Notes: generated by a model from the sequence alone, not told the origin. A DNA stretch of 64,000 bases from Candidatus Obscuribacterales bacterium (GCA_019744775.1 JAIETZ010000006.1:41092-105091), one strand, 5' to 3'. Shown: positions 19,620-64,000, counted from the first letter of the stretch. Translations and numbers: made by a program.

Positions 19620-19749
19620 TTTCATTCTGCACCCACTTAATCGTGCTTAAAAGCACTGGTTAGTTGTAAACGCTCTCAAATGCACAAGAGCTTAATTGCA
19701 AAATACCAGTTGCGAATTACATCTTGCAGTTCTACAAAAACTTCACAAG

Positions 19750-19843: not shown

Positions 19844-19918
19844 ATGAAGAAATCCCTACTAGCACTACCCCTGGCATTTTTGCTGACGTTCAATTATCTG
19901 CCTCTGCCGCTTCAAGCT
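19844..19918 (+). other. Sec-type signal peptide of gene 2
   Basis: The sequence is MKKSLLALPLAFLLTFNYLPLPLQA/QEAP, with two Lys followed by a ~20-residue hydrophobic stretch. The cleavage site is uncertain by a few residues (LQA|QE or QEA|P). There is no lipobox Cys. Confidence 0.65.
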
Positions 19919-31657: not shown

Positions 31658-31706
31658 ACTAACAGCTAATAACTAACCAGTTAGCTAACTAGAATTTCGT
31701 AAAACA

Positions 31707-31727
31707 TTAAACCGAACCCCGGTTTAA
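31707..31727 (+). terminator. Stem-loop TTAAACCG-aaccc-CGGTTTAA, 50 nt after the gene 2 stop (weak terminator candidate, no U-tract)
   Basis: It is a perfect 8-bp inverted repeat (31707-31714 / 31720-31727) with a 5-nt loop. It is followed by cggaaaag, not a T-run. Confidence 0.25.
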
Positions 31728-31739
31728 CGGAAAAGTAGT

Positions 31740-31768
31740 TTAAATATATATATGCGAGGGCATATAAA
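31740..31768 (+). promoter_or_regulatory. AT-rich motif TTAAATATATA plus (TA)5 and the palindrome TATATG-n6-CATATA; candidate promoter or operator for gene 3
   Basis: The 11-mer is shared with the gene 2 spacer. TATAAA lies at 31763-31768 with TTTAAA 18 nt upstream. The inverted repeat is 31749-31754 / 31761-31766. Confidence 0.3.
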
Positions 31769-31872
31769 CGTTGAGTGGGCGTTGTTCAGCATGTCCTGCG
31801 GCGGTGAATGTAGCTTTGCTGATTGGCTAGCCATGAGTGTCCGGTTTGGTGCTCTGGGGGTCGGCTAGTGCT

Positions 31873-31977
31873 ATGGGTACAAGTAGGTCTTTACTACCAA
31901 CCAAGGTGCTAATGGTTTTATTAACCTGGCAGTTGATTCTGCCGGGATTTTTGGCGTTTCCGCCCGCTGCATACGCT
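31873..31977 (+). other. Sec-type signal peptide of gene 3
   Basis: The sequence is MGTSRSLLPTKVLMVLLTWQLILPGFLAFPPAAYA|QDAS. It has a basic n-region (R5, K11), a hydrophobic core and an A-Y-A site, followed by a Pro/Ala-rich linker (TPPAAPAPAPTP). Confidence 0.65.
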
Positions 31978-34900
31978 CAAGATGCCTCAACTCCACCCGC
32001 TGCCCCTGCTCCCGCCCCCACCCCTGACCTCGACTTAAGCTCTGCCGCAAAAAATTTCACAGCCCCGACCAACCTTAGTCCGACCAATATTACTGTCGGT
32101 GGTCAGACCGTAACGGTCCAAGCATCGCAAGCACTAACTGCAGCTGAATTTGTTGCCGTGCGCCAAGTTATGAATACAGGTAACCAGTACCTACAATTAA
32201 ACGATCTCGGGGTAGCAGTGGGTGGCGGACTTAGATTAAATCCGACCCTAATGACCGGCATTGGCAACCTTGTCGTACCTGAAAGTGTGAGAGTGTCTCA
32301 AAACGCTGCAGTTTTACAAAGCCTCAACTTGGCAGGCAACTTCGTCAATTCGGGCACCTACAATATCTTTTCGTCCAACCCGGCAGTGACAGCCGCCAGT
32401 ATTAACGCCGCCAATATTTTCAACAATGCCGGCGCCACAATAAGTTCGTCTTTAGCCAACCTCACCCTTAATGCAGTCAACAACATAGTCAACGCCGGAA
32501 CAATCACCAGCGCCGGCAATTTGTCCATGATGGCCGGTGGTTCAATTACCAACACCGGGGCACTGGCAATGATGTCGGCGCTCAACAATATAAACATGAC
32601 CGCCAACAACATCGTCAACAGCGGTGTCATTCAATCACAATTGGCCAACATCAACATCGCCTCGCAAATGGCCAGCAATTTAGCCATGAACAACATGGCA
32701 GGACAATTAAAAGCGCTCAGCGGCAATATCAACTTCCGCGATTTAGCATTTTCCGGCAAGCACAACTTGAGTCTCATCGGTGGAGATTTCTTGTCTCACC
32801 AACTGAACATGTACTCCGGCGACGGAATTGTGAATGCCGATATAGGCAACGTCACCGGTCAAATAAACATCTCAGCCGGTGAAGCACATGTTAGTGCAGC
32901 AACAAACAATTTAAACCTGGGCAACATGAACATAACCGGAGATCCGACGTATTACAACACTGCAGGCGATGTTACAATTTCCGGTAATCTTGGTACCAGC
33001 ACTACGCCTTTAACAGTTTTAGCCATAGTTGCCAGCGGCAATATTCTTACAACTACAGGTGCCGGTTCGATAGACACTCGTGGACTATCAGGCAATGGTG
33101 GAGCGATAACTATGGTCGCCGGCGCCAAGTTTACTTCCGATGGTCCGGCATCCGGTAGTAATGACACCACATCTACTCTCACAATCACCGGCGCATCGCT
33201 CACCGGCGGCAAAATCGACTTAAATACAGGTGCGGCAATCTCTTACATCGGTTCGTCCAGTACAGGTGGCGTTGGTAATGGCGGCAACATCCAATTAGTA
33301 GCCTTTGCCGGCTCGGCTTCCGACTCAGGCACAATTACATTGCCGACAAGCACCCCGGTTTTTGCCAACGGCAATGGCGGCGGTAATGGTGGTGCCATCT
33401 CCATGATAGCCGGAGCCAATTCCGGCACTGCAATTACGACCGGCGATCTAACTTCTACCGGAGCAAGTGGAACAGGCAGCATAGCTCTGGCAACGGCACA
33501 GCCGACTATTTTTACTATATTCAATGACCCAAATGTAATCATCTCACCTGGAGGAGCCATAGGCTCAGGAGCCTTTATTGCCGGTGCCACCACAGGAGCT
33601 TCCATATCAACTCAAAACCTGCAAACATCAGCAGGAACAGTAAGCATCACTGCCGGTAATAACGCCGGCATCAACACAATTACAAATGCCGGTGGCACGG
33701 TCACAATAAATACCACCAGCTCAACAGCCTTCAATATTGGCGGCGGTGGTGTCAACGGCACCACTGGAGCAATTACTGCCAATAACACATCCGGGCAAGG
33801 GGGTACTATTTCCATAACCAATAACGGTTCCGGCGGCATCACGCACAACACAACTGCCAACCTCAGTGTCACCTCAGCCGGCAACGGACGAGGCGGGGCG
33901 ATTATACTCAATGCAATCGGCACAGGCGCAGGTGGACCATTAACCATCGGTACAGGCGCCACAGCAGTCACCATTTCAGCCAATGCTATCGGCACAGGCT
34001 CCGTCGGTGTCGCACCTGCAGCGAACATAAGTTTGCTAGGCACAACGTTGAGCTTCAGCACAAACGGTCTAACGCTAAGTTCGACAGGCGGCACGTCAGG
34101 CGCCGGCGGCAAAGTTAATGTCTCAGTCTTAGGTGGCACATTAACAGCCGGTACAGCTACTTCTCTCATCATCAACGCAACAGGTGGTGGCACATCCGGT
34201 GCGGGGGGCACGATAAGTCTCGCCTCAAGCGGAGCTTTGGCAGTTACAACTGGCGCCAATTTTACCAACGCGCCCACAAATGGTGCCGGTGGCGTCTATA
34301 ACCTCACGTCATATGGCTCTTCCGTCACGGTGACCGGTGCTCTGAGCGCTAGCGCTGTCGGCGCTAATGGTGGCGCGGGCGGCAATATATTCGCCTCTGC
34401 CGCGACCACGGCTAGTTTCTCCAGCACAGTCAGTGCAAGCGCAATTGGTTCTATCGGCGGAGCAGGCGGCACTATCTCAATACTGAGTAATAGCGGCACG
34501 ACTTTTAATATCGGTGGCGGCGGCGGCAACGGCACAGGTGGTGCAATCACTGCTAATGCCGTTACAGGCGGTCAGGGCGGACAGCTATACATCACAAACA
34601 ATGGTACGGGCGGTATCACACACAATACTACCGCCAACGTAAGCGTCACTTCTGCCGGCAACGGGTTGGGTGGACTTGTCCAACTGGATGCCGTCGGCTC
34701 AGGTAGCGGTGGTGCGTTAGTAATCGGAAATGGCGGAACGGCTGTTACCATATCAGCTAATGCATCGGGCTCAGGGTCAGTCGGAACATCCAACAACAAC
34801 ATCCTTCTCTATGGAACAACAATCACTTCTGCAAATGGTTTGACATTAAATGCAACCGGTGGCACTACGGGTGCCGGCGGCAAAATTATAGTGTCGACGT

Positions 34901-37900
34901 CCAACTCCGGAATAACAGCAGGCTCCGCCACTTTCGTGGTCAACGCCGTGGGCGGATCGACTTCCGGCGCCGGTGGGCAAATAACTCTAAATTCATCCGG
35001 CGCTCTAGCTGTAACCACAGGAGCTAATTTCACTGCCGCGCCAACTAATGGTGCCGGTCCTTCATATACTTTCATCTCCACTGGTTCTACTATCGCTGTC
35101 ACCGGCGCCCTGAGTGCCAGCGCCGTTGGTGCAAACGGTGGTGCCGGCGGCAGTATTTACGCCAACGCATTTAGCAGTGCCGGTTTCTCCAGCACTGTCT
35201 CAGCCAGCGCCCTAGGCAGTACAGGTGGTGCAGGCGGAACAATTACCATTTTCTCCAATAGCAGTTCGCCATTCAATATTGGTGGTTCGTCAACGCAGGG
35301 AACAAGTGGCGCCATTACCGCCAATGCGGTAACGGGCGGACAAGGCGGACAAGTATTCATTACTAATAATGGCATTGGTGGTATCACTCACAACACTACA
35401 GCCAATATCAGCGTGACTGCTGCCGGCAATGGACTAGGCGGCGTGGTATCACTAGACGCAGTTGGCACGAACAGCTTAGGTGGCACCCTCACACTAGGTA
35501 CCGGCACGGCTGTCACCATCACCGCCAGTGCCGCAGGCTCTGGAACCGTCGGCTCAGCTGTTACCAACAACATATTTTTGAAGGGATCAACAATCAGCTT
35601 CGTCACCAATGGTCCCATTCTTACCGCTTCAGGCGGCACAACAGGTGCCGGTGGCAACATCTATATTGAAGCCACCAATGGAGCACTCACTGCCGGCACC
35701 GCAGCCACATTAAGGCCGACAGCTACCGGTGGTTCCACATCAGGTGCCGGTGGCACTATTACCATTAAATCATCGGGCAATTTGTCGGTAACACCTGGAG
35801 CGGGAGTGTTCACCGCAGCTCCTGTCAGTGGCGCCGGTCCAACATACAACTTAATTTCTACGCAGGGTTCCGTGACGGTCACGGCAGCTCTAAGCGCCAG
35901 TGCTGTCGGCGGAATAGGCGGCAATGGCGGCAACATCACCGCCACAGCCGGCACCACCGTTGGTTTCACTGGTGCATTAAGCGCCAGTGCTCTTGTGAGC
36001 GGCAATGGCGGCAGTATTACTATCACCTCCAACAGCTCCACAACCTTCGCTGTCGGCGGCTCCGGCACCCAAGGAACCAGCACCACCATAGCCGCTAATG
36101 CAGTGTCGGCAGGACAAGGCGGCAAAATTTTTATTACAAATAACGGCACGGGTGGTATCACCCACAATACTTCCGCCAACTTAAGCGTCACTGCGGCAGG
36201 CAATGGCTTAGGAGGCGTAATCTCACTCGATGCCGTCGGCAGCAACAGTGTTGGCGGACCTTTGACCTTAAACGCAGCAGGAGGTGTCGCCATAACCGCC
36301 AGTGCAATAGGATCCGGTACTGTAGGTGTTGCAGTCAGCAATAATATTTTTCTCAAGGGCGAATCCCTTGTCATGGGCGCAGGCGGCGTCCAAGCCAACA
36401 CTACAGGAGGCACAACAGGCGCCGGCGGCAAAATAACCGTGCAGATTACCAATGGAGCGCTCACAATCGGAACAGCAGCTACCTTGCGCTTGAGCGCAAT
36501 TGGCGGCGGTACCTCTGGAGCCGGAGGCACCATAACCATTTCATCGAGTGGTGCACTGACTGCTACGCCTGGTGCCAACTTCACTGCTTCCCCGACAAAT
36601 GGTGCCGGTCCCATATTCTCTTTAACTTCAACTGGTTCTTCTGTAACAACGTTAGCAGCGTTGAGCGCCAGCGCCACAGGAGCTGCCGGAGGCGCCGGCG
36701 GGTCGATAACTATAAATGCAGCAACGACTGCCAATATTACGGGAGCACTGGGCGCGAGTGCTTCGGGCTCAACCGGAGGTAATGGCGGCGTCATAAGCAT
36801 AAGCAGCAATAGCGACTCTACATTCAATATTGGCGGTTCCGCCACTCAAGGGACGAGCGGCGCTCTCTTGGCCAATGCAGCTACTTCCGGACAAGGCGGG
36901 GTTATAACCATAATTAACAACGGCGTAGGTGGTATCACGCATAACACATCCGCAAATATCAGCGTGACAGCCGCCGGCAATGGACTGGGCGGCTCGGTGA
37001 CCCTCGATGCAGTCGGCACCGGCACCGGCGGTCCTCTGCAAATAGGCACCGGCGGCACCGCAGTCACCATTGCCGCAAATGCGTCGGGAACAGGAGCTGT
37101 CGGAACAGCACCTACGACAAACATCAGCTTAAAAGGCACCACTCTTGCCTATAGCAGTCTCGGCTTAACTCTGCAAGCAACTGGTGGCACAACCGCGCCG
37201 GCAGGCGGCAAGATTTCGGTACAAGTTACAGACGGAGCCATTCAGACAGGTGCCAGCAACTCGCTTTTGATTAGCGCGGTCGGTGGCTCAACATCCGGCG
37301 CAGGAGGCACCATTACCATTAGCGCCAAGGGTGCTCTTGCTGTTACTCCGGGCGCCAACTTCACAGCCGCACCCACAAGCGGCAAGGGCGGCAACTACAA
37401 CCTTACTTCCACCAACGATTCTGTGTCCATAATTGGCGGTAGCTTATCAGCTAATGGTGTCACGTCAGGCGCCGGTGGCTCAATCACCATATCGGCAGGA
37501 CAAAACAATTCAGTGAGTGGTGGCAGATTATCATTTAGTACCAGTTCATCAACATTGACAGCAAATGGAGCTGGAGGCGGCAATGGTGGCAGCATCAGCG
37601 TGACCGTCAGCAGCCCCTTCGCCTTCAATATTGGCGGCGCAGCAACAAATGCCAATGGCACAGGGGCAGCCATTACAGCTAATTCAGGCGGTTCAGGCGG
37701 CGCTGGCGGGTCTGTAGTTATTACCAGCACAGGCATCGGTGGAATTACCTTACCGGGCAATAACATCTCGGTTAACGCAACCCTCGGCGCCGGCGGCACA
37801 ATAAAGCTTTTAGCTGCTGAAGGACCCATAACAGGACCTCTAAATATCGCCGCCGGTACAACACTCAATGCCGGCTCGACAATGGACGAAGGCGGAGAAA

Positions 37901-58900: not shown

Positions 58901-61900
58901 GTGCACTTACCATCTCCAACGCTCTATCCCTAAGCGGAAGTGGAACGATTACATTGGCTACGGACACCGGCAACACAAATGTCGCCCTGAATGCCGCCGT
59001 CTCTACCGGTGCATCCGGGATCATCAATATCACAGCTAGTGGCTCCGGCGATATTACGAGCGGCAATTCAGGAATAGACCTTACAACAGGCACCGTCAAT
59101 CTCACGTCCGGCAGCGGCAGCATCTACAGAGTTGTTGGCTCAGGTCCTATTTCGGTCTCCGCATCTTCACTGTCTGTTAACACCGGTAATCCTGGTACTG
59201 CCCAAATTCTTACCAGTGGCCCTATCACTCTAGCCACGTCTTCTGTAGGAGGCAATTTCACTGTTACAACTGCTGGATCAATTAATACCTCAGGCACTGT
59301 CACTTCCGTTAATGGAACGCTGAACTTGGATGCTGCAGGTACTATCACCGTTTCTAATCCAATGTCCGGCAACTTCGTGCTTCTACAGACACACGTTACA
59401 TCAAATGGATCCGTTGCACTAAATGCCAACCTTACCGGCACAACGGGTGTCAATATCACAACTGATGGAACAGGCAACGTTACTAATGCCGGATCAACTT
59501 CAATTACTGCCGTTGATCAGCCAATCAATATTACAGCCAATAATGTGACCTTCTCTGGTACGGTTAACGCAGGCACTACCGGAATCGTCACATTGAAACC
59601 CAATGGTGCCAAATCAATTTCTGTCGGAGCTTCCTCCAGCACATTCAATGTAACTTCAACGAATCTCTCAGCCATTACTGCTGGAACCTTAAATATCGGC
59701 TCTCAATCCGACGCAGGTGGACTTACTATAGGAGGCGCAATCAACGTCTCTGGAAGCGGCGCTGGTGCCTTCAACCTCTACCTTAACAACGCCGGCGCAG
59801 TTACGTCCTCCGGTCAAACAATAACTATTGGCAGTAAACTCCTCCAAATTACAACAACAACCCCATCCGGCACAGTCACACTAGGAACCATATCAGGTAC
59901 AACAGGCAGCATGACTGTGACATCCGGTGGAAACATTACAGTTGGCTCTGCAGTAACATTCAGCGGCGTTGCCGGTGGCGTGTCACTGGTAGGGCAAACG
60001 AGTTCCAACGCCAATATCGCCATCAATGCCAACGTATCGCTCGCCGCCGGCTCGGGCGCCATTACTCTTTTGACTTATGGAACAGGCAATATAACTAGAT
60101 CTGGCAGCGTCACGCTTACTTCTGATTCCGTTCAATTTGTAACCGACACTGGCAGCATTGGTTCTGCCGGCACTCCAATGCTCACTGCCGCCACCCAAAG
60201 CTTGTCTGCCAATACCGGCAATTCAGGAGCTGCATACATTAGCAATGCCGGTGCGATTTTCCTAACTACCTCGTCAGTGGGTGGCGACTTCTCAGTCACA
60301 ACAACTGGAGCCTCCGCCACTCTCGGCATCACAGGAAATGTAACATCTACTAATGGCGCAGTGACGCTTGCCGCCAACGGCACCATTACAGTCTTCAATC
60401 CACGTACCATATCCGGAAATACCGTTGTCCTGCAAACATCCTCAGGTTCTGGTGGTTCGATTACCTTGAATGGCAACGTCACCGGTACCGGCGGGGTGAC
60501 TATCACTACCGACGGAGCAGGCAATGTAACCAATGCTGCCACCAAATCGATAAGCACAACAAATTCCCCTATCACCATAACAGCTAATGACGTCTCATTC
60601 TCAGGCACGGTCAATGCCGGTACGAGTTTAGTAACGCTCCAACCAAATGGAGCCAAGGCAATTTCTGTTGGTTCAACTGGCTCAACATTCTCAGTTACGA
60701 GCAGCGATCTCTCCGCGATTACAGCAGGAACACTCATTGTCGGCACTACTTCTCAAGCAGGCGGTCTAACCATAGCCAGCTCACTTAACGTCTCCGGCTC
60801 AGGTGCGGGTAATTACAATCTGCAATTCAACAACGGCGGCAATTACACAAATTCTGGAAACACACTGACACTTGGCTCCAAGAATTTAACAGTAACATCT
60901 CTGGGCACCGTTAATACAGGCACCGTAACAGGCACATCAACAACGATAGCAATGACATCCGGAACAGGTATGACGGCATCAGGTGATATCACTGCTTCTG
61001 CTGGTTCTGTAGCATTGACTAATACCGGAAACGGTACGATGGCAATTAACAACAACATTACTGGTTCAACGGGTGTCACTATGGCAACGAACGGAGGCAC
61101 CTCAGATATTAATGTCATAGTCAATAAGACTGTAAGCGCCACTACTGGCGATGTTTCTCTGACCACTCCAACAGCAACAATAAATGGCAAGCTTACGACA
61201 GCCAAAGATGACGGCAACGTGATAGTCCAAAACAGCGGCGCTCTAACTATGAATGGAACAGGTACTCTGGAAGTCACAGGAAATGGCTACCCAACGATCA
61301 ATGTTCAAGCCGGTGGTGCCAATGCTCTGAATTTAAATGGCTCGTTTACCTACAATTCATGTTCATCTTGCATGGTGCAATTACAATCAGCTGCTTCAGG
61401 CGGCTCAGTTGTCGTCGCCAATAATTCAACTCAAACAGGCAACAACGGCGGCTACTTCCAATTCATAGCTCCGCAAGTCACCTTTAGCGGCAATGCCACC
61501 GTAAACAACACAGACGGATATCTGGATCTGACCGGCAATACGTTAAGTTCAACAATTACCTTTGCCGACAATTCCACCGTTAATCTCAATCTCGGCACCG
61601 GTACCGCCTTCATTGGTTCATACGATACTCATGCCTTGGTCATCAACAAGACTGCCGGCGCCAATACCGCGACACTAAATGTTACCGGCGAAGTACAGAC
61701 TTATTCATATGGCGCCAACCAAACGCTTGCCGCCAACGTCGTTCTTCAATCCGACAGCAACATCACTTTCAATGTCGATGGCGGCACTCTAACCACCAAC
61801 GGCTCCATCGTCTCCACTATGTCCGGAGGCACCATAACACTATCCGGACATGACTCCAACCTGACCCTTGCCGGCACACCACAACAAGTTGCAGTAACCG

Positions 61901-64000
61901 GCGGCGGCAACTCTGCAATCATCGTTCGCGCCAGCGGCACCAACCACACTGTCACCGTCAACTCCAGCTACACTCTTAATGCCGGCGCTTCCGGCTATGT
62001 CGCCATCGAAGCAGACAATTTGAGTGTCGGTTCAAGCGTCACAACTTCCTCCAACAGCCCAGTTGCCTTCTATGGACAAAACCTAACCCTCAGCGGTGGC
62101 GCTGTCGTTACCAGCCCCACAGGCGTGTCCTTGTTTGCCTCCGGTGGCTCCAATGTATTGACCATCACAGCGCCCGACGCCACCTCCGCTCAAATTTCCT
62201 CAACTGCCGGACTGGAATTCCATGGCAACAGCATTGTCTTCGCCAAATCAGCAGGCGGCAACACCACTTTCCTCAACTTGAATAATTCCCCTGTCTACAT
62301 TCAATCAGTCGGCGGCAACGTTACTATAAATCCGAGCGTCACAGTGAGATCAAACAACGACATTACACTGCAAGCAAACAGCAATGCCGCCTTCAATATC
62401 AACGGCACTTTGGAATCAACCAAAAACGGCGGTGTCATCAGCCTCTCCGGCAACAACGGACTGACCATTGGCGGTACCACTGCCGGCACAGTCAAGGTTT
62501 CAGGCTCAGGAGCCAACTCCATCTCAGTATTCGGCTTTGGTAGCGGCTTGACTCTGAATAATTCACTGACACTAGATGCCGGCAGCTCAGGCACAGCAAT
62601 AATAGGCGCTGCCTCCGGCAACATGACAATGGCAGCCAACAAGTCAATCACATTCGCAAATTCCACTGCCGGCAGCGTCCAAGCAACGACACTTCTTATG
62701 TCAGGCGGCAACACAATTACAGGCAGCAAGACATCAGGCACGGCACTCTCCATTTTCTCGCCTAATCCAAATCCATTTACTCTCAATTTGCAAGCTACTA
62801 CAACCAATACCATCGCCTCAGGCGGTGGCGCCATCAACATCTTCTCTCCGAAAAATGTCACTGTAGGCATAAATGGTGGCGGACCGACAGACACTGCCAC
62901 ACTGAATTTGAATGGCGGTCCGGTAACGATTACATCTAATCAAGGCACGACGGTTATCAGCTCACGCGTGATTATCAATTCGCAAAATGACGTCACTTTC
63001 AATGTCAATCAAATTACCGTTGGGGCTTCCGGTCAAATCAATACATCCAACGGCTCGATTTCGCTGATTGCCCGCACAGGGACTATCAGTATTGGCAACA
63101 ATGTCACCATGTACGCTAATGAGGGTAATTTGATTATTCAAAACACCGACAGTTCAGGCGGCACAATAGACATTGCCTCCGGCGCCAACCTAACCGGTTA
63201 TACCGACAGCAACCCATCATTCGGTTACGTCAACATCGTTGTCGGTCCGATTCCATCAATGCCTGTTGTTGGAACTGTGCCTGCTAATGTAATCACCAAT
63301 CAATCAGGTGGTGGCGTTATCTATTTCGGCGCCAGCAGCATTAACGCTTCGGCTCCGGATAACACAATTAACGCCAAAGGCCGCGATGTTGTATTCAGCA
63401 CAGGCGAGCAAGGATCGTCTGCCATCACTCTTGGTGGCAACGTGACAATCACTGCCGACCCGCCGGAGCATCCAGCAGCCTCCAATACAATTACAACTGC
63501 CGAAGTGCCGACATTCATGAGCATGTTCATGAACTCCAGCGCTTTGACAGCAACCGATAGCACTTCCATAAACAGCCAACGAAATTCGAGCATCGCCACA
63601 ACCGTCATCCCATTTGATTCCAGCCCGGCATCAAGTGTCAACACCTCAGTTGTCCAGGACACCATCGGCAATGTCGTCAATCAGGCTCTTGAGCAATCGG
63701 GCATCCTCGACGGCGCTCCTAAGGTCAAAGACAAAGACGAAGACAAAGAAAACTCCAAGAATCCCTACCAACCAATCAGCTACTCACCGGATCAACCAAT
63801 CAGCTACTCGCCAGCAGTCGCCAATACGGCTAAGTTTGTTCCAGTGAGCAGCAGTCACAGCCTTTGCACTCTAGGTACATCCGGCACCAGCATCAAGTGC
63901 CTGGGCGGATCTCAGGTCTTCGTTGACGAGCCCAATGTCGTCGAGATAAGAAAAGGCGAAGCACTAATTGCGCCGACTAGAAAAGCCACAACGGTTGTTG
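31873..64000 (+). CDS. Giant secreted beta-solenoid-type repeat protein, paralogue 3; 3'-partial (runs off the window, >=10,709 codons in-window)
   Basis: It is not in the ORF track because there is no in-window stop. An in-frame TGA sits at 31834-31836 upstream. ATG 31873 gives MGTSRSLLPTKVLMVLLTWQLILPGFLAFPPAAYA|QD. I checked the frame (pos mod 3 = 1) at His codons 33844, 34621, 35389, 36163, 36940, 39298, 40078, 40849 and 41620. I also checked it at Leu codons 43111, 48964 through 60820 and at Asn 63760. No + strand frame-1 ORF is listed anywhere after 31873, so no stop interrupts it. The last ~550 nt align with the C-terminal region of genes 1 and 2. Confidence 0.87.
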   Translation, partial: MGTSRSLLPTKVLMVLLTWQLILPGFLAFPPAAYAQDASTPPAAPAPAPTPDLDLSSAAKNFTAPTNLSPTNITVGGQTVTVQASQALTAAEFVAVRQVMNTGNQYLQLNDLGVAVGGGLRLNPTLMTGIGNLVVPESVRVSQNAAVLQSLNLAGNFVNSGTYNIFSSNPAVTAASINAANIFNNAGATISSSLANLTLNAVNNIVNAGTITSAGNLSMMAGGSITNTGALAMMSALNNINMTANNIVNSGVIQSQLANINIASQMASNLAMNNMAGQLKALSGNINFRDLAFSGKHNLSLIGGDFLSHQLNMYSGDGIVNADIGNVTGQINISAGEAHVSAATNNLNLGNMNITGDPTYYNTAGDVTISGNLGTSTTPLTVLAIVASGNILTTTGAGSIDTRGLSGNGGAITMVAGAKFTSDGPASGSNDTTSTLTITGASLTGGKIDLNTGAAISYIGSSSTGGVGNGGNIQLVAFAGSASDSGTITLPTSTPVFANGNGGGNGGAISMIAGANSGTAITTGDLTSTGASGTGSIALATAQPTIFTIFNDPNVIISPGGAIGSGAFIAGATTGASISTQNLQTSAGTVSITAGNNAGINTITNAGGTVTINTTSSTAFNIGGGGVNGTTGAITANNTSGQGGTISITNNGSGGITHNTTANLSVTSAGNGRGGAIILNAIGTGAGGPLTIGTGATAVTISANAIGTGSVGVAPAANISLLGTTLSFSTNGLTLSSTGGTSGAGGKVNVSVLGGTLTAGTATSLIINATGGGTSGAGGTISLASSGALAVTTGANFTNAPTNGAGGVYNLTSYGSSVTVTGALSASAVGANGGAGGNIFASAATTASFSSTVSASAIGSIGGAGGTISILSNSGTTFNIGGGGGNGTGGAITANAVTGGQGGQLYITNNGTGGITHNTTANVSVTSAGNGLGGLVQLDAVGSGSGGALVIGNGGTAVTISANASGSGSVGTSNNNILLYGTTITSANGLTLNATGGTTGAGGKIIVSTSNSGITAGSATFVVNAVGGSTSGAGGQITLNSSGALAVTTGANFTAAPTNGAGPSYTFISTGSTIAVTGALSASAVGANGGAGGSIYANAFSSAGFSSTVSASALGSTGGAGGTITIFSNSSSPFNIGGSSTQGTSGAITANAVTGGQGGQVFITNNGIGGITHNTTANISVTAAGNGLGGVVSLDAVGTNSLGGTLTLGTGTAVTITASAAGSGTVGSAVTNNIFLKGSTISFVTNGPILTASGGTTGAGGNIYIEATNGALTAGTAATLRPTATGGSTSGAGGTITIKSSGNLSVTPGAGVFTAAPVSGAGPTYNLISTQGSVTVTAALSASAVGGIGGNGGNITATAGTTVGFTGALSASALVSGNGGSITITSNSSTTFAVGGSGTQGTSTTIAANAVSAGQGGKIFITNNGTGGITHNTSANLSVTAAGNGLGGVISLDAVGSNSVGGPLTLNAAGGVAITASAIGSGTVGVAVSNNIFLKGESLVMGAGGVQANTTGGTTGAGGKITVQITNGALTIGTAATLRLSAIGGGTSGAGGTITISSSGALTATPGANFTASPTNGAGPIFSLTSTGSSVTTLAALSASATGAAGGAGGSITINAATTANITGALGASASGSTGGNGGVISISSNSDSTFNIGGSATQGTSGALLANAATSGQGGVITIINNGVGGITHNTSANISVTAAGNGLGGSVTLDAVGTGTGGPLQIGTGGTAVTIAANASGTGAVGTAPTTNISLKGTTLAYSSLGLTLQATGGTTAPAGGKISVQVTDGAIQTGASNSLLISAVGGSTSGAGGTITISAKGALAVTPGANFTAAPTSGKGGNYNLTSTNDSVSIIGGSLSANGVTSGAGGSITISAGQNNSVSGGRLSFSTSSSTLTANGAGGGNGGSISVTVSSPFAFNIGGAATNANGTGAAITANSGGSGGAGGSVVITSTGIGGITLPGNNISVNATLGAGGTIKLLAAEGPITGPLNIAAGTTLNAGSTMDEGGEIWLSGSTINWTGSAAQGLTLNADASQVVNFGDGGIVSIKTTDSVTSLNIGTGAQSISISARGGDMTGAGGQVTLSSGKDITLSIGSGFVVGPTNGSGATFTFTAGTNASAGSGNISISGGSLYASAVGAGLSGLGGSGGTVTIIAGQNNAAGGTLSFATAGSTILSDSTGTIGGGIISITTNSSTAFNIGGASPGANGTGAAISARATGHAGSGGSITIKNMGSGGITLPGSNILVNASSGAGGTITLDAASGSTAGALTITAGSVLSVNAAGSGNFNGGQITLKGSSISWSGASTPGLTLNANAVGSGNGGSISVTTTGTTSDLAIGTSATSLSLAARGGSLNSSNGKGGTITISAGRDLSVTTSSISVAPQGATGDGATISLIAGATGSTGNLAITGALDASAVTRGSGSSAGGSIALASKSSTTFNVGGGGSNGTTGALSANATQNGQGGTISITNNGTGGITHNTTANISVLSAGQGKGGVISLDAVGSGSGGPLTLGTGATAVTLSANALGQGIGGTTPTNNIFLKGSTLSFSTNGLTLNSNGGRTGSGGKITVQLLSGNITAGTATTLIATATGGTTSGAGGSISLLSGSGSVTVTTGASFTAAPTDGAGPSYTLTSSSQAVSVTGALSASAVGSVGGVGGSITASGGTTLGFSSTVSASAIGSTGGAGGTITLSSTSGSTFNVGGSSTQGTSGAITANAAANGQGGTISITNNSTGGITHNTSANMSITAAGNGEGGAILLDAVGSGAGGTLTLGTGATAVTLDANSIGAGSVGTVMTNNVRLKATSISFSTNGLIVNATGGTTGAGGNISIEATNGALTAGTLTTLVLNAVGGSTSGAGGSITLKSSGALTVTPSASFNAAATSGAGPSYSLTSTGSSVSVAAALSASATGAIGGNGGSITVSAGTTAGFTGAVSASALVSGNGGTISIASNSATTFGVGTSTTQGTNSTIAANAVTSGQGGTVSITNNGTGGITHNTTANLSISSAGNGLGGSIVLDAVGAGSGGPLTLGTGATLLTLTANASGSGTTGTAPTNNIRIKGSTLSFSTNGLSLNATGGTTGSGGNIYVQTTTGAVTAGTATTLIASAIGGSTSGNGGTISLIAGGALTVTPGASFTAAPTSGAGPTYNLTSSNSTVSVAAALSASAVGAIGGNGGSINVSAASTAGFTGAVSANALVSGKGGSIVISTNSGTTFGVGTSTTQGTNSTISANAVSSGQGGTISITNNGTGGITHNTTANISVTSAGNGEGGTIIFDAIGTGTGGTLTLGTGATQVALSANSSGSGNFGTMPTNNIRLKGSTLAFSTNGLALNATGGTTGNGGNISVQVTGGTLTAGTATTLIVNAGGGSTTGAGGTVSLTSSGTLTVTAGASFLVAPTSGNGGNFNLTSTGANVSVTGAFAASAVGTIGGDGGTITVNAATNALFSSTVAASATGINGSTGGTISITTNSSSAFSMGSAATNGTSGAITAQANVGGQGGTVNITNIGGDISTGLSPGVTTSSLNLTSKTGNIGTSGSPVLVSTSMVTSNTGAPGTSFISNSGSATIIGTSSVGGNFSVTGTTSNAEMFTNGTVTSQTGTLTLTNNGTINTYHAITGYALALSTSGSNGSINLDQNATGISGVTITTNGSGNVTNAASTTIGTTNSSITISTNDVSFSGSINAGVGTVSLQQNGNKPISVGGSGGTVSILASDLAAITAGTLVIGNSTQPGAITVAGTIDVSGAGPAGVYNLQFNTTTTFTSTGQTITLGTKSLTINMGNSATLGATTATTGNIYITSGNAPTIDAAVSTLGSLIVTGVNSINATSTIASNFLYLYSDAGIFLNQPVSGNTGVVLIAATNSISADSINANGLNGGNVVLLAAGAVNITGTIDTSSTGGGTGGNINIIASSSFSNIQVQNLTTTGTSGGDVVMSYLGTSLPGIGVNVTGNITTDATGLNGSAGSIALTGSASILISGNISAQATANGSSTTALGGSVFLSSGSTSSTAISVGTINTSATNNGTGDKAGNIILLSATGSTGLNPSNITKGTLTQTGGTAGSNLVYGLNGAATTIPSSLNVTPTTSINIRPGGYDTVQGSGGAGSLNIAMNTGGDTQMLVPLNTSAGSGSTSLFLNSFTQVSGSESLILALPGGLTTNAAINTSSTTGLVNIVAQGAITMGGALNLNSASDVIVQSTNASGITGGFNFTATAARHVQIYGTMTPFSTTVGGNVSLTSTTGATYVSGNITTTPSTSGNGGYVSIVSGTTITKSNITTSATGTTSNGGYIYLNAQGAITTGNLTSTGGASSGVPGRINITAGAGGTGNLVTGTITGAGGSDTSSMYLSSPGSITTGDVNFISTVNMTAGTNVLTGAITTRNNVTLSATSGYVVAGGSISTVPSTSVVGGYLKVDAGTYITVQSINTTAGTGGNSNGGTVYLNAQSDITAGNITVHGQGTGAPGAVLISAGNGGTGNVQIESISGSGVNNGVNVGIDTPGTISAGHIAYVGLVAMSAGTGITLSGINTTPFAATAQAGFIIVRSLTGNINVTNTGITANSSGSGILGATVRLLANAGDITVAGGINLAGTSTASGGGLEVTANNLTLSAGLDGGALNLSGSGTTGSTGYAYLFTQNNVTLNAITMNSGTSGLGSLFYIQAGNSGTGNISTGAITGTTALSGHEMLFMAPGTITVNGNIDIHITSTGCCATFQAVAGNAGTSRAAAQSGTLLINGNIDASGANNGGNVYLVNMGTNGGITVGNINTNVTTSGQGNAVVVIAHGALNLGNINTSATGVFFGGPVFLSSGATSGTAVTTGTITASGGAGSQSLWIAKTSTGGVSLGTLTGFAGQFIGTPTGAVANVTSSQTIALGSGTLTGFNPGGFDSINAPTGTISLTYSAVSPWIPLVVRSGNFSAQTLTGTAGTIGLVYAAGDINIGGNITGISDLKLRSSAGGFTAQNVTITRTGLNSLMGINVSQDITMANTFNWSSSWDGNGGFMGLYSAGGGLNLGTAGNSSSNSISTAASGATGFGGNMIIVTRNSLVDYNTTITSAGGSTSGNAGQISIHSLTGSLDFYSRYNTVTHNNSSILANSNSGAGALIDLQGYNGINFLRDNSLSGGTTNATVSASGTTAAGTILFWNFTDSGILNMSEAIAVSATGTNGGISANIGQTSTINGTLTAPSVLLLTDYLNETITTTGAITASGSGTAVNMTGLGANFVLNGNVTASTASVGVASLGLTIGSSSTVSGVGATLTTFSLANSGVVTSATTGTPVTLTSTGPLTLSGTGAYNLTGGGPNTLTISVTGGATLTVNGTNTFNPGSAGTVNFNAQNYGNSIVFGTGTKTITAATGTVNISSPNVTFQSGTSLSTNLGAGRTLTINSGGGANPLTITGPGTGNTASLVVSGGSFSISPTSGQAVIFTGGGTINFTGGATTISTGSNADITIGTNIGGATAKTISANGTGDIIRVGDSTVSGTTVALSSGTGDIGTSTMFIQTSASSSLTANSGSGGTAFVTNAGAVSIGASTVGSTFSLTTTGASANLTTTGAITSSTGTLTITTNGNLTASNALSGNSLVLVTSSGSNGTIALNANATGTTGITATTDGTGNFTNGASSAISTSGNTPISITANDVTLSGTMSAGSGTVTLVPNGAKSVSFSSTGGTFSIAASDIGAITAGTLIVGTTAQAGGFTIGGAVNVAGAGPAGVFNLQFNNGGAFTSANQTITIGARTLTINTSGASSTTQLGGISGSSGSVTVSSGGTLTIGVGVSSNLTMSGASTINLSTNGNNSGIAVNANISTGSSGSVTINANGSGSISRSGSVTVSGPTVTLVSGSGNIGASGTAILTAATNTLTINTGGSGTADVSNAGAITLGASTVGSNFTFTTTGSSANIGTSGAITSTSGTLTLTANGNITASNAFSGNALVLQTSSGSNGAVTLNANAIGTTGVTITTDGTGNVTNNGATSISSTNAPITITANDVSFTGVNAGTGTVTLQPNGAKAISINGSSGTFTVLSTDLSAITAGTLIIGTTSQAGGMTLQAALNPTANLQLLNGGNFTSGGQTITMGSRTLTINALGTTTVNAISGSGSTTLSVNGGTGLTVNGIVNISGIGGTINLTTSNNGSIALNADVGQTGVTTNISANGSGNITNGGSIVSGDFVNLSSGTGNIGTVGTPIQVGQTGDKSVNTGGTGSAFITSAFNLSLITSTVGGTFTVTTTGASNIIGVNGALTSTSGTLTLTSNLGSVVVGNPVSGNTVVLQTGSTSNGTITINSSGSVTGTNGVTITTDGTGDLVVSNSNAISSTNAAIAITANTVTLGTGTINAGSGTVSLLPNGAKSIAVGGSGIGGTFSISGTELAAITAGTLIVGTTTQTGGLTVSGAINVSGTGAGTYHLQFNNGGNYTSSGQTITLGDHNLTVNSLGTINSGTVTGSLSTVNMTSSSTTTISSAVTVGSSGTVSLTTTSNGAVTVNANLGGGSSTTITTNGTGDVTNAVSTTISAASGGTISITANDVTFSGSVSAPSGTVTILPNGNKSITVAGGAGTMTIAASDLSAITAGTLILGTTTNSGGLTISGTVDVSGAGPAGVYNLQLNNGGAFTSSGQTINLGAKTLTVNTLGASSTTTLGAINGTTSNVTVSSGGTLTLSSAMAISGTATVSLSTNGNNSGIAINANASTGASGSIALNANGSGTISRTGAVTLTSGTLQLTSGTGNIGSGGTPIQTAASILTANTGSPGTATITNAGAVTLGASTVGGNFSVTTTGASATIGTSGNITSTFGSLTLTANGTITTSNTVSASTLILQTSSGSNGAVNLNANATGSSSVTITTDGTGNVTNAVSTSISSSIAVTITANDVAFSGSVSSGGNLSLIPNGAKSITVGSAGGTFNVQSADLSAITAGTLIVGSTSQAGGLTIGSALNVSGSGAGAYNLQFNNGDVFTSSGQTITLGAKTLTVTTLGASSTTTLGAISGTTSNITVSSGGTLTVSGAIAVSGTATVQLQTPANSSQIAINNNVSTGSGGTINITNTGNVSRSGSFTLTSGTVNFQNNGGTVGSAGTPMLTAVSNLTVNGTSSGSSTISNTGAVSIGGSSITGDLSITTTGASANITTTTSSIQSISNSLTLIANGNITTTSGVSGFTGLTLQTSSGTNGNINLQGSLNAGAPNGSVVITTDGTGNVTSTTQPINGANNVTITANDVSFGSAVLATTLTLIPNGAKSISVASSSGTFSVTTSDIAQFNAVDIVIGTTAQAGGLTVGGALNISSSTFSSLQLNNGGNITSSGQTITLGAKPLSINAVGTITYGSIVSTTGNISMTSGSTLSIPTAITISSSGIISLTTNAANAAITISANVNAGASGIINVSANGSGTITRSGSVTLTANTVNLTSTSGNIGASGTPILTAAGTLTANTGGSATADISNTGALLIGTSTIGGNFSVTTTGASATIGTSGSITSTSGILTLTGNGTITASNALSGNALVLQTSSGSNGAITLNANATGTTGVTITTDGTGNVTNAGSTSISSTNSAVTITANDVAFSGTVNAGTNTVTLLPNGSKSITVGSAGGTFNVQSADLSAITTGTLIVGTGAQTGGLTVDSNIDVSGAGPSGVYNLDFRNASSITSAGQTITLGAKSLNIQTFASSSITLGAISGTTSPVTVTSSGTLTIGAAIAVSGTATINLSSGTNSDTTINANISTGASGAIQIFAGGTGSITRSGAATLTSGSVSLMTITGSIGSSGTPILTSTALLSANTGSPGTATISNAGATTLGSSVVGGNFSVTTTGASANLSVASNAVSTNGTLSLTANGTLSAAGPSSGNIVLLTTSSGSNGAITLNNNVTGTNGITITADGTGNVTNAVSTSISTTNSPISITANDVAFSGSVNAGTNNIFLNPNGAKSISVGGTGGTFSVTGSDLSGITASTLTIGDYSIAGGLTVSGSINVSGSGAGAYNLQLYNGGAFTSSGQTITLGAKSLEITTLGASSTTTLGAISGTTSSINVSSGGTLTVNGAINVSGTATVILFANGNNSAVSINANVSTGAGGEIDVTGNGSGNITRTGAVTLTSGTVRLLSSSGSIGSSGTPIQTAATTLTANNTSTGTADITNAGAVTLGGSSIAGNFSVTTTGASATIGTSGSVTSSTATLTLSANGTITASNALFGASVVLQTSSGSNGSVTLNADTTASGGSLTITTDGTGNVTNAGSTSLTCGSCSMLITANDVTFSGSVNATGGNTVTLRPNGAKSISVGGTGGTFSVASSDLSAITAGTLVVGTTAQAGGLTVANGLNVSGSGAGAYNLQFNNGGAFTSSGQTITLGAKTLTITTTGGSSTTNLGAVNGTTSNVTVSSGGALTVSGAMSISGTATVSLATSGSNSAISITANASTGASGTMSLNANGSGTITRTGAVTLTSGTVNLISGTGNIGSGATPIQTAASILTVNSGNPATADITNAGAVTLGTSTVGTNLSITTTGASANLGTSGAITTTLGNMSLTANGNITISNTLIAGSTGNTLTLTTSSGSNGTIAVNANATANNGNINITTDGTGNVTNAVSTQISSNNITITANDVAFSGTLVGGLSVSLLPNGNKSISVNGTGGTFSVTAADLAAIATTTLIIGTTAQSGGLTIISDFNSPVSILTFRNGGNYTAAGRTITLNSASLTINALGTVDTGSTTGTNNTLNITGGGITVSGNLVGDLGALLTTTSNGSIAINGNVNAGGNEADITTNGSGSITRSGNVTITGSIVRLASGTGNIGTVGTAIQTTTNNILSINTGGSGTATVTNTYAGPILLDTSTVGGDFSLSTTGASGNLNTFGNVTSTSGTLTFAINGTIQIGHAVSGNAAIVQTSSGSNGSILVNSSAGSSLTGTTGVTITTDGSGVLSVASARTISTTNAPITVTAEDILLSGSLNAGTNTVTLVPNGSKAIAISGGGATFNVDNGELSRITAGTLIVGSRAVTGNLTVNGAVNVSGSGAGAYNLQFNNGGTFTSSGQTITLGTKNLTISASGIVTLGTINGSSGTVSVTSGSALTISNALSLSGSGTITLATDTGNTNVALNAAVSTGASGIINITASGSGDITSGNSGIDLTTGTVNLTSGSGSIYRVVGSGPISVSASSLSVNTGNPGTAQILTSGPITLATSSVGGNFTVTTAGSINTSGTVTSVNGTLNLDAAGTITVSNPMSGNFVLLQTHVTSNGSVALNANLTGTTGVNITTDGTGNVTNAGSTSITAVDQPINITANNVTFSGTVNAGTTGIVTLKPNGAKSISVGASSSTFNVTSTNLSAITAGTLNIGSQSDAGGLTIGGAINVSGSGAGAFNLYLNNAGAVTSSGQTITIGSKLLQITTTTPSGTVTLGTISGTTGSMTVTSGGNITVGSAVTFSGVAGGVSLVGQTSSNANIAINANVSLAAGSGAITLLTYGTGNITRSGSVTLTSDSVQFVTDTGSIGSAGTPMLTAATQSLSANTGNSGAAYISNAGAIFLTTSSVGGDFSVTTTGASATLGITGNVTSTNGAVTLAANGTITVFNPRTISGNTVVLQTSSGSGGSITLNGNVTGTGGVTITTDGAGNVTNAATKSISTTNSPITITANDVSFSGTVNAGTSLVTLQPNGAKAISVGSTGSTFSVTSSDLSAITAGTLIVGTTSQAGGLTIASSLNVSGSGAGNYNLQFNNGGNYTNSGNTLTLGSKNLTVTSLGTVNTGTVTGTSTTIAMTSGTGMTASGDITASAGSVALTNTGNGTMAINNNITGSTGVTMATNGGTSDINVIVNKTVSATTGDVSLTTPTATINGKLTTAKDDGNVIVQNSGALTMNGTGTLEVTGNGYPTINVQAGGANALNLNGSFTYNSCSSCMVQLQSAASGGSVVVANNSTQTGNNGGYFQFIAPQVTFSGNATVNNTDGYLDLTGNTLSSTITFADNSTVNLNLGTGTAFIGSYDTHALVINKTAGANTATLNVTGEVQTYSYGANQTLAANVVLQSDSNITFNVDGGTLTTNGSIVSTMSGGTITLSGHDSNLTLAGTPQQVAVTGGGNSAIIVRASGTNHTVTVNSSYTLNAGASGYVAIEADNLSVGSSVTTSSNSPVAFYGQNLTLSGGAVVTSPTGVSLFASGGSNVLTITAPDATSAQISSTAGLEFHGNSIVFAKSAGGNTTFLNLNNSPVYIQSVGGNVTINPSVTVRSNNDITLQANSNAAFNINGTLESTKNGGVISLSGNNGLTIGGTTAGTVKVSGSGANSISVFGFGSGLTLNNSLTLDAGSSGTAIIGAASGNMTMAANKSITFANSTAGSVQATTLLMSGGNTITGSKTSGTALSIFSPNPNPFTLNLQATTTNTIASGGGAINIFSPKNVTVGINGGGPTDTATLNLNGGPVTITSNQGTTVISSRVIINSQNDVTFNVNQITVGASGQINTSNGSISLIARTGTISIGNNVTMYANEGNLIIQNTDSSGGTIDIASGANLTGYTDSNPSFGYVNIVVGPIPSMPVVGTVPANVITNQSGGGVIYFGASSINASAPDNTINAKGRDVVFSTGEQGSSAITLGGNVTITADPPEHPAASNTITTAEVPTFMSMFMNSSALTATDSTSINSQRNSSIATTVIPFDSSPASSVNTSVVQDTIGNVVNQALEQSGILDGAPKVKDKDEDKENSKNPYQPISYSPDQPISYSPAVANTAKFVPVSSSHSLCTLGTSGTSIKCLGGSQVFVDEPNVVEIRKGEALIAPTRKATTVV
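31978..33000 (+). other. Conserved N-terminal head domain (gene 3), with an extra TAAEF-type module at about 32050-32320
   Basis: It has the same collinear motifs as the gene 2 head. The extra N-terminal segment is QALTAAEFVAVRQVMNTGNQYLQLNDLGVAVGGGLRLNPTLMTGIGNLVVPESVRV. This resembles the TAAE(L/F)...LVIPASV module found inside the 2.47-kb supermodules of genes 1 and 2. Confidence 0.65.
33610..37400 (+). repeat. B-type superrepeat array, block 1 (5 units of 256-259 codons)
   Basis: The His codons of the GGITHNT motif lie at 33844, 34621, 35389, 36163 and 36940, with spacings of 777, 768, 774 and 777 nt. The units are collinear (FNIGG..ITANA..GQGG.I.ITNNG.GGITHNT.AN.SVT.AGNG.GG...LDAVG...). 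Confidence 0.85.
37400..39150 (+). repeat. A-type units (2, ~280 aa each) interrupting the B array of gene 3
   Basis: GGSVVITSTGIGGITLPGNNISVNA occurs at ~37705-37770 and GGSITIKNMGSGGITLPGSNILVNA at ~38545-38610. ISISARGGDMTGAGGQVTLSSGKDITLS and VVGPTNGSGATFTFTAG match gene 1 A-type units (ALSARGGLTGGDGGIIFLSAGRNLTI and VVGPQAGTGKGADITFRA). Confidence 0.7.
39150..42390 (+). repeat. B-type superrepeat array, block 2 (4 units)
   Basis: The GGITHNT His codons lie at 39298, 40078, 40849 and 41620, with spacings of 780, 771 and 771 nt. Confidence 0.85.
42390..43200 (+). repeat. Isolated C-type unit of gene 3
   Basis: The sequence is ITISTNDVSFSGSINAGVGTVSLQQNGNKPISVGGSGGTVSILASDLAAITAGTLVIGNSTQPGAITVAGTIDVSGAGPAGVYNLQFN (Leu codon 43111). 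It has the same motif order as the 48.2-60.9 kb array. Confidence 0.75.
43200..48200 (+). other. Least-repetitive core of gene 3 (~5 kb), relatively rich in aromatic residues
   Basis: I saw no long-period tandem repeat here. Local ~145-aa units occur near 44.6 and 45.06 kb (NGGYIYLNAQGAITTGNLT vs NGGTVYLNAQSDITAGNIT). Trp-containing segments are SLWIAK, SPWIPLVVRSGNF, NTFNWSSSWDGNGGFMGLY and ILFWNFTDSG. A CC pair lies at 45958-45963. Confidence 0.6.
48200..60900 (+). repeat. C-type superrepeat array (12-13 units of ~339-348 codons; one truncated to 196 codons)
   Basis: The Leu codons of the (Y/F)NLQFNNGG motif lie at 48964, 49984, 51019, 51607, 52627, 53644, 54664, 55684, 56716, 57733, 58756, 59776 and 60820. 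The spacings are 1020, 1035, 588, 1020, 1017, 1020, 1020, 1032, 1017, 1023, 1020 and 1044 nt. Confidence 0.88.
61240..63465 (+). other. Shared C-terminal beta-helix module of gene 3
   Basis: It has the same motif order: TINVQAGGANALNLNGSFTYNSCSSCMVQLQS, GYLDLTGNTLSS, FIGSYDTHALVINKTAGAN, NPNPFTLNLQA and MYANEGNLIIQNT. ITADPP lies at 63448-63465. Confidence 0.85.
63769..63816 (+). repeat. 24-nt in-frame tandem duplication (QPISYSPD / QPISYSPA)
   Basis: caaccaatcagctactcaccg (63769-63789) matches caaccaatcagctactcgcca (63793-63813) at 19 of 21 positions. Genes 1 and 2 carry a single PISYSP. Confidence 0.85.
63835..64000 (+). other. Start of the FecR-like beta domain (inferred) of gene 3, cut by the window edge
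   Basis: The sequence is FVPVSSSHSLCTLGTSGTSIKCLGGSQVFVDEPNVVEIRKGEALIAPTRKATTVV. It aligns with the same domain in genes 1 and 2. Confidence 0.4.

Follow-up and report, generated by a model that had tools for sequence, protein, structure and literature searches.

A 32-kb open frame in a Candidatus Obscuribacterales genome predicted to encode an exported megadalton beta-solenoid protein of an unannotated, widespread family

The second half of a 64,000-nucleotide stretch of DNA from a Candidatus Obscuribacterales bacterium (GCA_019744775.1 JAIETZ010000006.1:41092-105091; hereafter the window) is occupied by one open frame that runs off the right edge. This locus raises the question of whether a frame of such length is a single real gene and, if so, what kind of protein it could encode. 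The Obscuribacterales are a little-studied, non-photosynthetic order of cyanobacterial relatives. The whole window consists of three plus-strand genes, the tandem paralogues g1, g2 and g3, of which g3 is the largest:

3..19619, + strand: g1, the 3' 6,538 codons and the stop of K2Y22_13540 (MBX9879478.1, 7,404 aa), in a frame that is open from base 3
19844..31657, + strand: g2, a complete paralogue of 3,937 aa, K2Y22_13545 (MBX9879479.1 by exact sequence look-up)
31658..31872, no strand: spacer of 215 bp between g2 and g3, holding the in-frame TGA 31834 and an AT-rich element at 31737
31873..64000, + strand: g3, first 10,709 codons, without a stop, running past the window edge

The translation of g1 is an exact suffix of MBX9879478.1 (P0006), a hypothetical protein encoded on a 181,771-bp contig of a Candidatus Obscuribacterales bacterium MAG. 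The gene is cut by the left window edge, and the window begins 866 codons into it. Given that g1 and g2 correspond to MBX9879478.1 and MBX9879479.1, g3 is the next gene on that MAG contig. The ATG listed for g1 at position 117 is internal, with the true start lying 866 codons upstream of the window.

Read from the ATG at 31873, the stretch 31873-63999 comprises 10,709 codons and zero stops. The nearest upstream in-frame stop is TGA 31834, and the frame is open throughout 31837-63999 (10,721 codons). Each of the other five frames across this stretch contains between 140 and 1,068 stops, and even at the lowest of these off-frame rates the probability of zero stops in the g3 frame is ca. e^-140. 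Therefore, the open frame is not attributable to chance. These results bear out an earlier note on this DNA, which had described an unbroken frame-1 gene of at least 10,709 codons behind an in-frame TGA at 31834 and with its start at ATG 31873; the translation of 31873-64000 that it had proposed as a check contained no in-frame stop. The note had also drawn attention to the absence of this gene from the ORF track. The absence itself was reproduced, as the list contains zero plus-strand ORFs of ≥ 150 aa after 31657 and a separate scan of the same part found a single off-frame 100-aa ORF, at 38303. Its significance, however, did not hold up, because the lister omits ORFs that run off either end. 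The missing entry is a listing artefact, neither a biological nor an annotation anomaly. The practical lesson is that ORF listers that drop edge-truncated ORFs systematically miss giant genes such as g3, and word-index homology searches do so as well. On the opposite strand, the giant genes contain ca. 30 ORFs of 150-394 aa (e.g., 35661-36845, 394 aa; 41739-42683, 314 aa; 54657-55550, 297 aa), and in one antisense frame of g3, only 140 of 10,708 codons are stops. The antisense ORFs are best read as shadow ORFs arising from the G/T/S/A/N codon bias, not as genes.

A 32-kb ORF might nevertheless be an assembly artefact, or a decaying pseudogene whose frame is open within the window by chance. 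The sequence comes from a MAG, g3 is highly repetitive at the protein level, its 3' end lies outside the window, and its protein was not found in the protein collection in which g1 and g2 were found. This last point is uninformative, since the word-index searches (5, 27 and 3 matches, all < 1,000 aa) missed g1 and g2 too. At the DNA level, the g3 repeats share only 60-84% identity (61-84% for the type-B copies), which makes it unlikely that the assembly collapsed or expanded them; Tandem Repeats Finder called no DNA-level arrays, the repeats being found only at the protein and diverged-DNA level. The complete lack of stops, where no other frame has fewer than 140, likewise argues against decay. 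In comparisons with orthologues from other assemblies, dN/dS amounted to 0.09 in the N-terminal module (N-module), 0.26 in the body and 0.18 in the 1,430 aligned codons of the C-terminal part. These values are approximate because synonymous sites are saturated, but all are well below 1 and indicate that g3 is under purifying selection. Furthermore, the g1-g2-g3 order is kept in an independent assembly, Logan contig L006 (SRR31912327), which carries a g1-like tail, a g2 orthologue (P0008, 3,022 aa) and a syntenic g3 orthologue of at least 8,676 aa that runs off its contig. The identity of this orthologue to g3 is ca. 80% over the first ca. 230 residues and 50% over 895. In contig L003, too, a g2-like gene comes after a g1-like one. 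Finally, only one N-module and one tail start occur in g3, and no tail lies within it, which rules out a fusion of two genes through a lost stop. On these grounds, we consider an artefact or pseudogene very improbable.

The extent of g3 beyond the window can be estimated from its relatives. In alignments with g1, g2, P0002 and L001, the window edge falls 144-146 residues short of the stop, in agreement with the earlier proposal that the right edge lies ca. 145 codons before the stops of genes 1 and 2 (ca. 146 residues in the alignment). P0002, an orthologous fragment that is 75% identical to g3 over the overlap, and L001, which is 79% identical, continue for 144-145 aa beyond the edge position and end in KMAACLMVSTTSHGAYNEGL(Q/K)K followed by the stop. 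The alignment predicts a full length of 10,853-10,855 aa and a mass of ca. 1.02 MDa. The roughly 10,850 aa suggested previously is therefore matched by what orthologues and paralogues imply, as a prediction for a 3' end that lies beyond the window. The exact 50-mer at the window edge had no match in the metagenome contigs scanned, and from the genome contigs the C-terminal alignment recovered only the relative L001. The accompanying view that g3 is among the largest bacterial genes was correct as to large size but overstated as a ranking: in a survey of giant genes, proteins of ≥ 10,000 aa were classed as “large” and “frequently detected” in several phyla, and “giant” denoted ≥ 30,000 aa (bioRxiv 10.1101/2023.11.21.568195). 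Thus, g3 is large yet far from record size. The finding places a gene for a protein of ca. 1 MDa in a public MAG of Obscuribacterales.

The visible part of g3 has a mass of 1,011 kDa and a pI of 4.8, and only 3.5% of its residues are charged; G, T, S, A and N together account for ca. 68% of residues and Asp for 1.7%. The following parts were distinguished:

31873..31980, + strand: predicted Sec-type signal peptide, aa 1-36, with the cleavage-like site AYA/QD (slash, cleavage position)
32008..33222, + strand: N-module, aa 46-450, a beta-helix with an LDLSS motif and the LTAAEFVAVRQV helix; HMM score 509 bits, inflated by the presence of g3 among the 19 family N-modules from which the profile was built
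33730..42279, + strand: eleven type-A super-repeats of ca. 257 aa each, aa 620-3469
42859..43716, + strand: degenerate type-B unit, aa 3663-3948
43717-47895, + strand: less repetitive body stretch, aa ca. 3950-5340
47896..61440, + strand: ca. 13 type-B super-repeats of ca. 342 aa each, aa 5342-9856; HMM scores 150-483 bits
62455..63465, + strand: end-cap, aa 10195-10531, ending in TITADPP; HMM score 979 bits
63466..63849, + strand: linker, predicted to be disordered, aa 10532-10659, with TTVIPFD(S/T)SP and a duplicated PYQPISYSP motif
63850..63999, + strand: tail start, the first ca. 50 residues of the C-terminal tail; HMM match at aa 10660-10708

The putative signal peptide, MGTSRSLLPTKVLMVLLTWQLILPGFLAFPPAAYA followed by QD, was assigned from hydrophobicity and the cleavage-like site. 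The only strongly hydrophobic segment of g3 is aa 10-31, with no other TM-like segment, and the signal peptides of g1 and g2 show the same A-x-A/QE layout. An HMM scan of g3 found the N-module in a single copy, and a phmmer search with g3 alone matched relatives at E 1e-93 to 1e-13. The N-terminal signature of the family is present in g3, i.e., a signal peptide and then LDLSS ... LT[AP]AE.VA..QV ... GNLTNxG.(I/F)Y. In the body, type-A copies are 40-70% identical to the first and are composed of coils of ca. 29-31 aa with GGxGGxIxI-like turns. At the C-terminal side, the end-cap is the best-conserved part across the three paralogues, and the cap, linker and first 49 tail residues are 62-79% identical to g1, g2, P0002 and L001. 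Along g3, hydrophobicity alternates with a period of 2 and the coil period is 23-31 aa, as would be expected for a parallel beta-solenoid. The complete paralogue g2 comprises a signal peptide, N-module (aa 49-400), body, cap, linker and full tail (aa 3747-3937), and we infer for g3 a tail of ca. 190 aa, consisting of a FecR-like beta domain and a short helical bundle.

The same terminal modules recur in a large number of other proteins. An exhaustive search with a tail profile recovered 2,181 representative proteins at E ≤ 1e-3 (240 at E ≤ 1e-30), and in nearly all of the best 150 of the 2,181, among proteins of up to 7,404 aa, the tail lies at the C-terminus or no more than ca. 25 residues from it. 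The N-module is common to tail-bearing proteins of 727-4,616 aa, and g1, in its full-length form of 7,404 aa, has the same N-module motifs at its N-terminus. Because members from 727 aa upward have the same N-module, body length is the variable. As read from these alignments and profiles, the family layout is a signal peptide, N-module, variable body, cap, linker and tail. Family members range from ca. 0.7 to 10.9 thousand residues (ca. 15-fold), with g3 being the longest among those compared, and they offer a natural series of putative fibres for studying how a solenoid lengthens by super-repeat duplication. Word-index searches badly under-report this low-complexity family, given that g1 and g2 were missed, and the profile search corrected this. 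The family is large, widespread and without a Pfam or NCBIfam model: scans of the N-terminus, body and tail with Pfam and NCBIfam gave nothing credible, and neither did PDB sequence searches with single sequences or with the tail and type-A repeat profiles.

Named members come from MAGs of Candidatus Obscuribacterales or “Cyanobacteria bacterium”; the labels Phycisphaerales, Saccharimonadales and Chloroflexota occur once each and may reflect errors in binning. Nearly all are annotated as “hypothetical protein” and one as “YVTN family beta-propeller protein”, an automatic name that seems to carry no information. The contig L001 (SBAT01000417.1 2-5278), with its g3-like C-terminus, was binned as “Chloroflexota bacterium Bin_14_1_1”, and an N-module fragment (P0175) carries the label Candidatus Saccharimonadales; in both cases, an Obscuribacterales contig seems to have been mis-binned. 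In L001, the giant gene is followed by ORFs that resemble FkbM-like methyltransferases and glycosyltransferases, as judged by visual inspection of the translations. Family members recur in tandem arrays of two or three (L002, L003, L006 and L009), and others stand singly among housekeeping genes; in these contexts, no translocator gene, whether for TpsB/Omp85, a T1SS or another type, is conserved alongside them. What we rate as new in this locus is a putatively secreted megadalton beta-solenoid protein of an unannotated and widespread family, with a conserved N-module and a conserved C-terminal tail that had not been recognised.

Structure prediction covered the C-terminal part of g2 and the N-module of g3. 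When the C-terminal 645 aa of g2 were modelled with AF2 from an alignment of 7 sequences, residues 20-335, the equivalent of the g3 end-cap, formed a beta-solenoid (pLDDT ca. 90), the linker at residues 340-451 was disordered (pLDDT < 50), and the tail consisted of a beta-rich domain and helices (pLDDT ca. 80). According to Foldseek, the solenoid part of g2 resembles the beta-helices of HMW1, EtpA, EspP, tapirin and tailspike. The g3 N-module was modelled from 19 sequences with a pLDDT of 88.5 and a pTM of 0.87.

Our preferred reading, to which we assign a probability of roughly 0.7, is that g3 is an intact, expressed-type gene whose product would be a Sec-exported beta-solenoid surface fibre or adhesin with a C-terminal docking tail. 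The protein would be exported by Sec via its signal peptide and, once outside the cytoplasm, would fold into a right-handed beta-solenoid rod that is rigid, acidic and nearly uncharged. With ca. 10,400 residues, ca. 27 residues per coil and 0.48 nm (4.8 Å) per coil, the rod would be ca. 0.2 µm long. The signal peptide and the fold suggest that it may act as a cell-surface fibre or adhesin. Duplication of super-repeats of ca. 257 aa and ca. 342 aa, composed of 23-31-aa coils, has built up its body, and the variable body would set its reach. One of the conserved terminal modules would form the distal tip, although the choice of distal end is a guess. The C-terminal tail could serve for docking or sorting at the cell-proximal end and bind a partner in the envelope much as the FecR/PupR periplasmic domain binds its outer-membrane transducer; this role is proposed because the tail is invariably C-terminal, follows a flexible linker and is FecR-like. 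The three diverged tandem copies would then provide fibres of three lengths (ca. 3.9, 7.4 and 10.9 thousand residues).

The description of the tail as FecR-like, already made in the earlier note, stood at the level of fold and failed at the level of sequence. In Foldseek searches of the PDB with the g2 tail, the FecR-family structure 4m0h_A (E 5.8e-3) and PupR 6ovk_R (E 1.2e-2) ranked top, both with prob 1.0, over ca. 115 aligned columns at an rmsd of 3.5 Å. However, PF04773 gave no match at E ≤ 10 in the C-terminal 400 aa of g1, g2 or g3, and the tail profile found no FecR chain among PDB chains. As modelled, the tail is FecR-like by fold only, with weak E-values.

This fold match is to a periplasmic domain, and one relative (P0023) has a genuine PF04773 match, which lies upstream of and outside its tail. 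Together with the lack of an evident outer-membrane translocator, these observations could be taken to place g3 inside the envelope, as a periplasmic structural or signalling protein whose tail contacts a TonB-dependent transducer and whose rod lies within the envelope. We consider this quite unlikely. The beta domain of the tail shares its fold with the periplasmic domain of FecR/PupR anti-sigma proteins (PF04773; 6ovk, 4m0h), but there is no sequence match, and the cytoplasmic anti-sigma N-domain, the TM helix and the STN/DUF4974 subdomain of those proteins are all absent. Instead, the family tail adds three or four helices and a conserved KMAACLM..T..HG.Y end. Family members also differ in gene context, as no ECF sigma or transducer (TonB-dependent receptor) gene was found nearby in the relatives' loci examined. 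In addition, a rod of ca. 0.2 µm and a 15-fold variation in length are hard to reconcile with a periplasmic sensor.

The resemblance of the solenoid to secreted adhesins might point instead towards type V secretion. Under such an explanation, g3 would encode a TpsA-like or autotransporter-like exoprotein analogous to filamentous haemagglutinin, the N-module would be a divergent TPS domain and an Omp85-type TpsB that recognises it would be encoded elsewhere. Like TpsA proteins (FHA/FhaB, HMW1, EtpA and HxuA), the g3 product combines a Sec signal peptide with a long right-handed beta-helix of degenerate G/T/S/A/N-rich coils and an adhesin-like shape, the order of signal peptide and beta-helix being that of FHA and HMW1. 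Moreover, the best PDB fold matches of the N-module, weak as they are, are all TPS domains: HxuA 4rm6 (E 0.048), HMW1 2odl (E 0.09, prob 0.89), EtpA, HpmA and FHA. Across these matches, however, E ranged from 0.05 to 7 and TM from 0.1 to 0.33, with an rmsd of 12-15 Å, and at the level of the models the likeness is generic beta-helix similarity. At the sequence level, PF05860, PF13332 and PF05594 had no match at E ≤ 10 in g3 aa 1-400, Pfam as a whole gave no match at E ≤ 0.01 in aa 1-1666 or at E ≤ 10 in aa 1-400, and no NPNL/NPNGI-type motif was found. Partner genes were also missing. The window contains three giant genes only and no ShlB/POTRA gene; no such TpsB-type gene occurs within 10 kb of relatives in the six contexts examined (L004-L009). 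Compared with TpsA, g3 is also 3-5 times longer, and its family has a conserved C-terminal FecR-like and helical tail that TpsA is without.

There is likewise no C-terminal beta-barrel, with no Pfam match to the autotransporter barrel PF03797 in the g1 or g2 tails. A classical autotransporter with a 12-stranded C-terminal barrel was ruled out by the AF2 tail, which is a FecR-like beta domain with helices, and a chlamydial Pmp was rejected on the lack of Pfam matches. By analogy, the g3 protein would work most like the beta-helical adhesins of the TpsA and autotransporter classes while failing their sequence and partner criteria, and we regard its assignment to type V secretion as unlikely.

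For the preferred reading of g3 as a Sec-exported surface fibre, the weak point is the passage of a 1-MDa rod across the outer membrane, for which no machinery is evident at the loci examined. Genes for TpsB/Omp85, an autotransporter barrel or a T1SS were found neither in the window nor beside relatives in five other contexts. With no known outer-membrane translocator alongside the family, how such rods reach the surface becomes a concrete question. A speculative answer, to which we give rather long odds, is that the family represents an undescribed Sec-dependent export and anchoring route for megadalton solenoid fibres in diderms, operating without TpsB, a barrel or a T1SS. In such a route, the C-terminal FecR-like and helical tail would dock to, or be threaded by, an outer-membrane partner, using the logic of FecR and its transducer for anchoring instead of signalling, and the number of super-repeat copies would set the length of the fibre in each of the tandem paralogues.

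Other very large bacterial proteins differ from g3 in instructive ways. The giant adhesins of type I secretion (LapA, SiiE, MpIBP and SwmB) are not known to have an N-terminal signal peptide; their repeats are of the Ig-like/BIg and the Ca-binding RTX GGxGxD types, a T1SS signal lies at their C-terminus, and ABC/MFP/TolC genes adjoin theirs. The cyanobacterial SwmB has 10,791 aa. The g3 protein is like these adhesins in its megadalton size, in a modular body whose repeats vary in copy number and in its presumed role as a surface fibre. In contrast to them, it has a signal peptide and no RTX Pfam match, and its family is without T1SS neighbours: no ABC/MFP genes adjoin the relatives, save an unrelated divergent RND cluster in L009. 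An RTX/type I adhesin was accordingly rejected for g3, which has a signal peptide, no HemolysinCabind match and an Asp content of 1.7%. The giant proteins of Omnitrophota resemble g3 in extreme length, origin in an uncultivated lineage, beta-helical segments and a largely unannotated state (bioRxiv 10.1101/2023.11.21.568195). Those proteins, however, reach ≥ 30,000 aa and combine several domains, and they include enzymatic modules, TM helices and antiparallel beta-helices (bioRxiv 10.1101/2023.11.21.568195), whereas g3 is predicted to be a parallel solenoid of a single architecture with ca. 10.9 thousand residues.

Several further features of the window and the family were observed. In the tail, the helix motif L..S....D.A...KL(I/V)KMAA (window 31520-31600, g2 aa ca. 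3895-3920) weakly resembles the GGA ARF-binding N-GAT helix. PF18308 was matched in P0016 at E 4e-5, slightly under the cutoff, this Pfam family was also precomputed for P0074, and the PDB chain 1j2j_B matched at E 0.32; the likeness is probably convergent. Within g1, there is an internal duplication of 824 aa, whose DNA copies lie 2,472 nt apart and are 70-79% identical (e.g., 9311/11783 and 10194/12666). The bodies of g1 and g2 also contain partial internal copies of the helix-containing part of the N-module, scoring 24-26 bits, and g3 contains none. The copy in g1 lies at aa 5047-5166 counted from ATG 117 (nt ca. 15255-15614), and that in g2 lies at aa 2271-2394 (nt ca. 26640-27010) and includes VTPAQWVAAVQV.

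The AT-rich element of the g2-g3 spacer (31737-31750, AGTTTAAATATATA / AGTTTAAATATATATAT) is situated ca. 135 nt upstream of the g3 start, and a similar AT-rich element, AAGTTAAATATATAAT, occurs at 19700-19720 in the g1-g2 spacer, upstream of the g2 start codon. Such elements may provide a separate promoter for each paralogue. A promoter and terminator scan of the intergenic regions made no call above shuffles and did not call the AT-rich element, and the element of 31737 was not found in the other loci compared. In L006, a ParE-toxin gene and a small partner gene lie on the opposite strand between the g2 and g3 orthologues (10064-10598), at a position where the window has only the 215-bp spacer. 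Lastly, g2 contains an extremely Gly-rich stretch at aa ca. 770-920 (window ca. 22150-22600), including GGGGGGTGNSGGTATGGTGGAAG and CCGGGGGASFGGGGGGADGGSAGGGLFGGGG, which is unlike the remaining solenoid and may be a flexible hinge.
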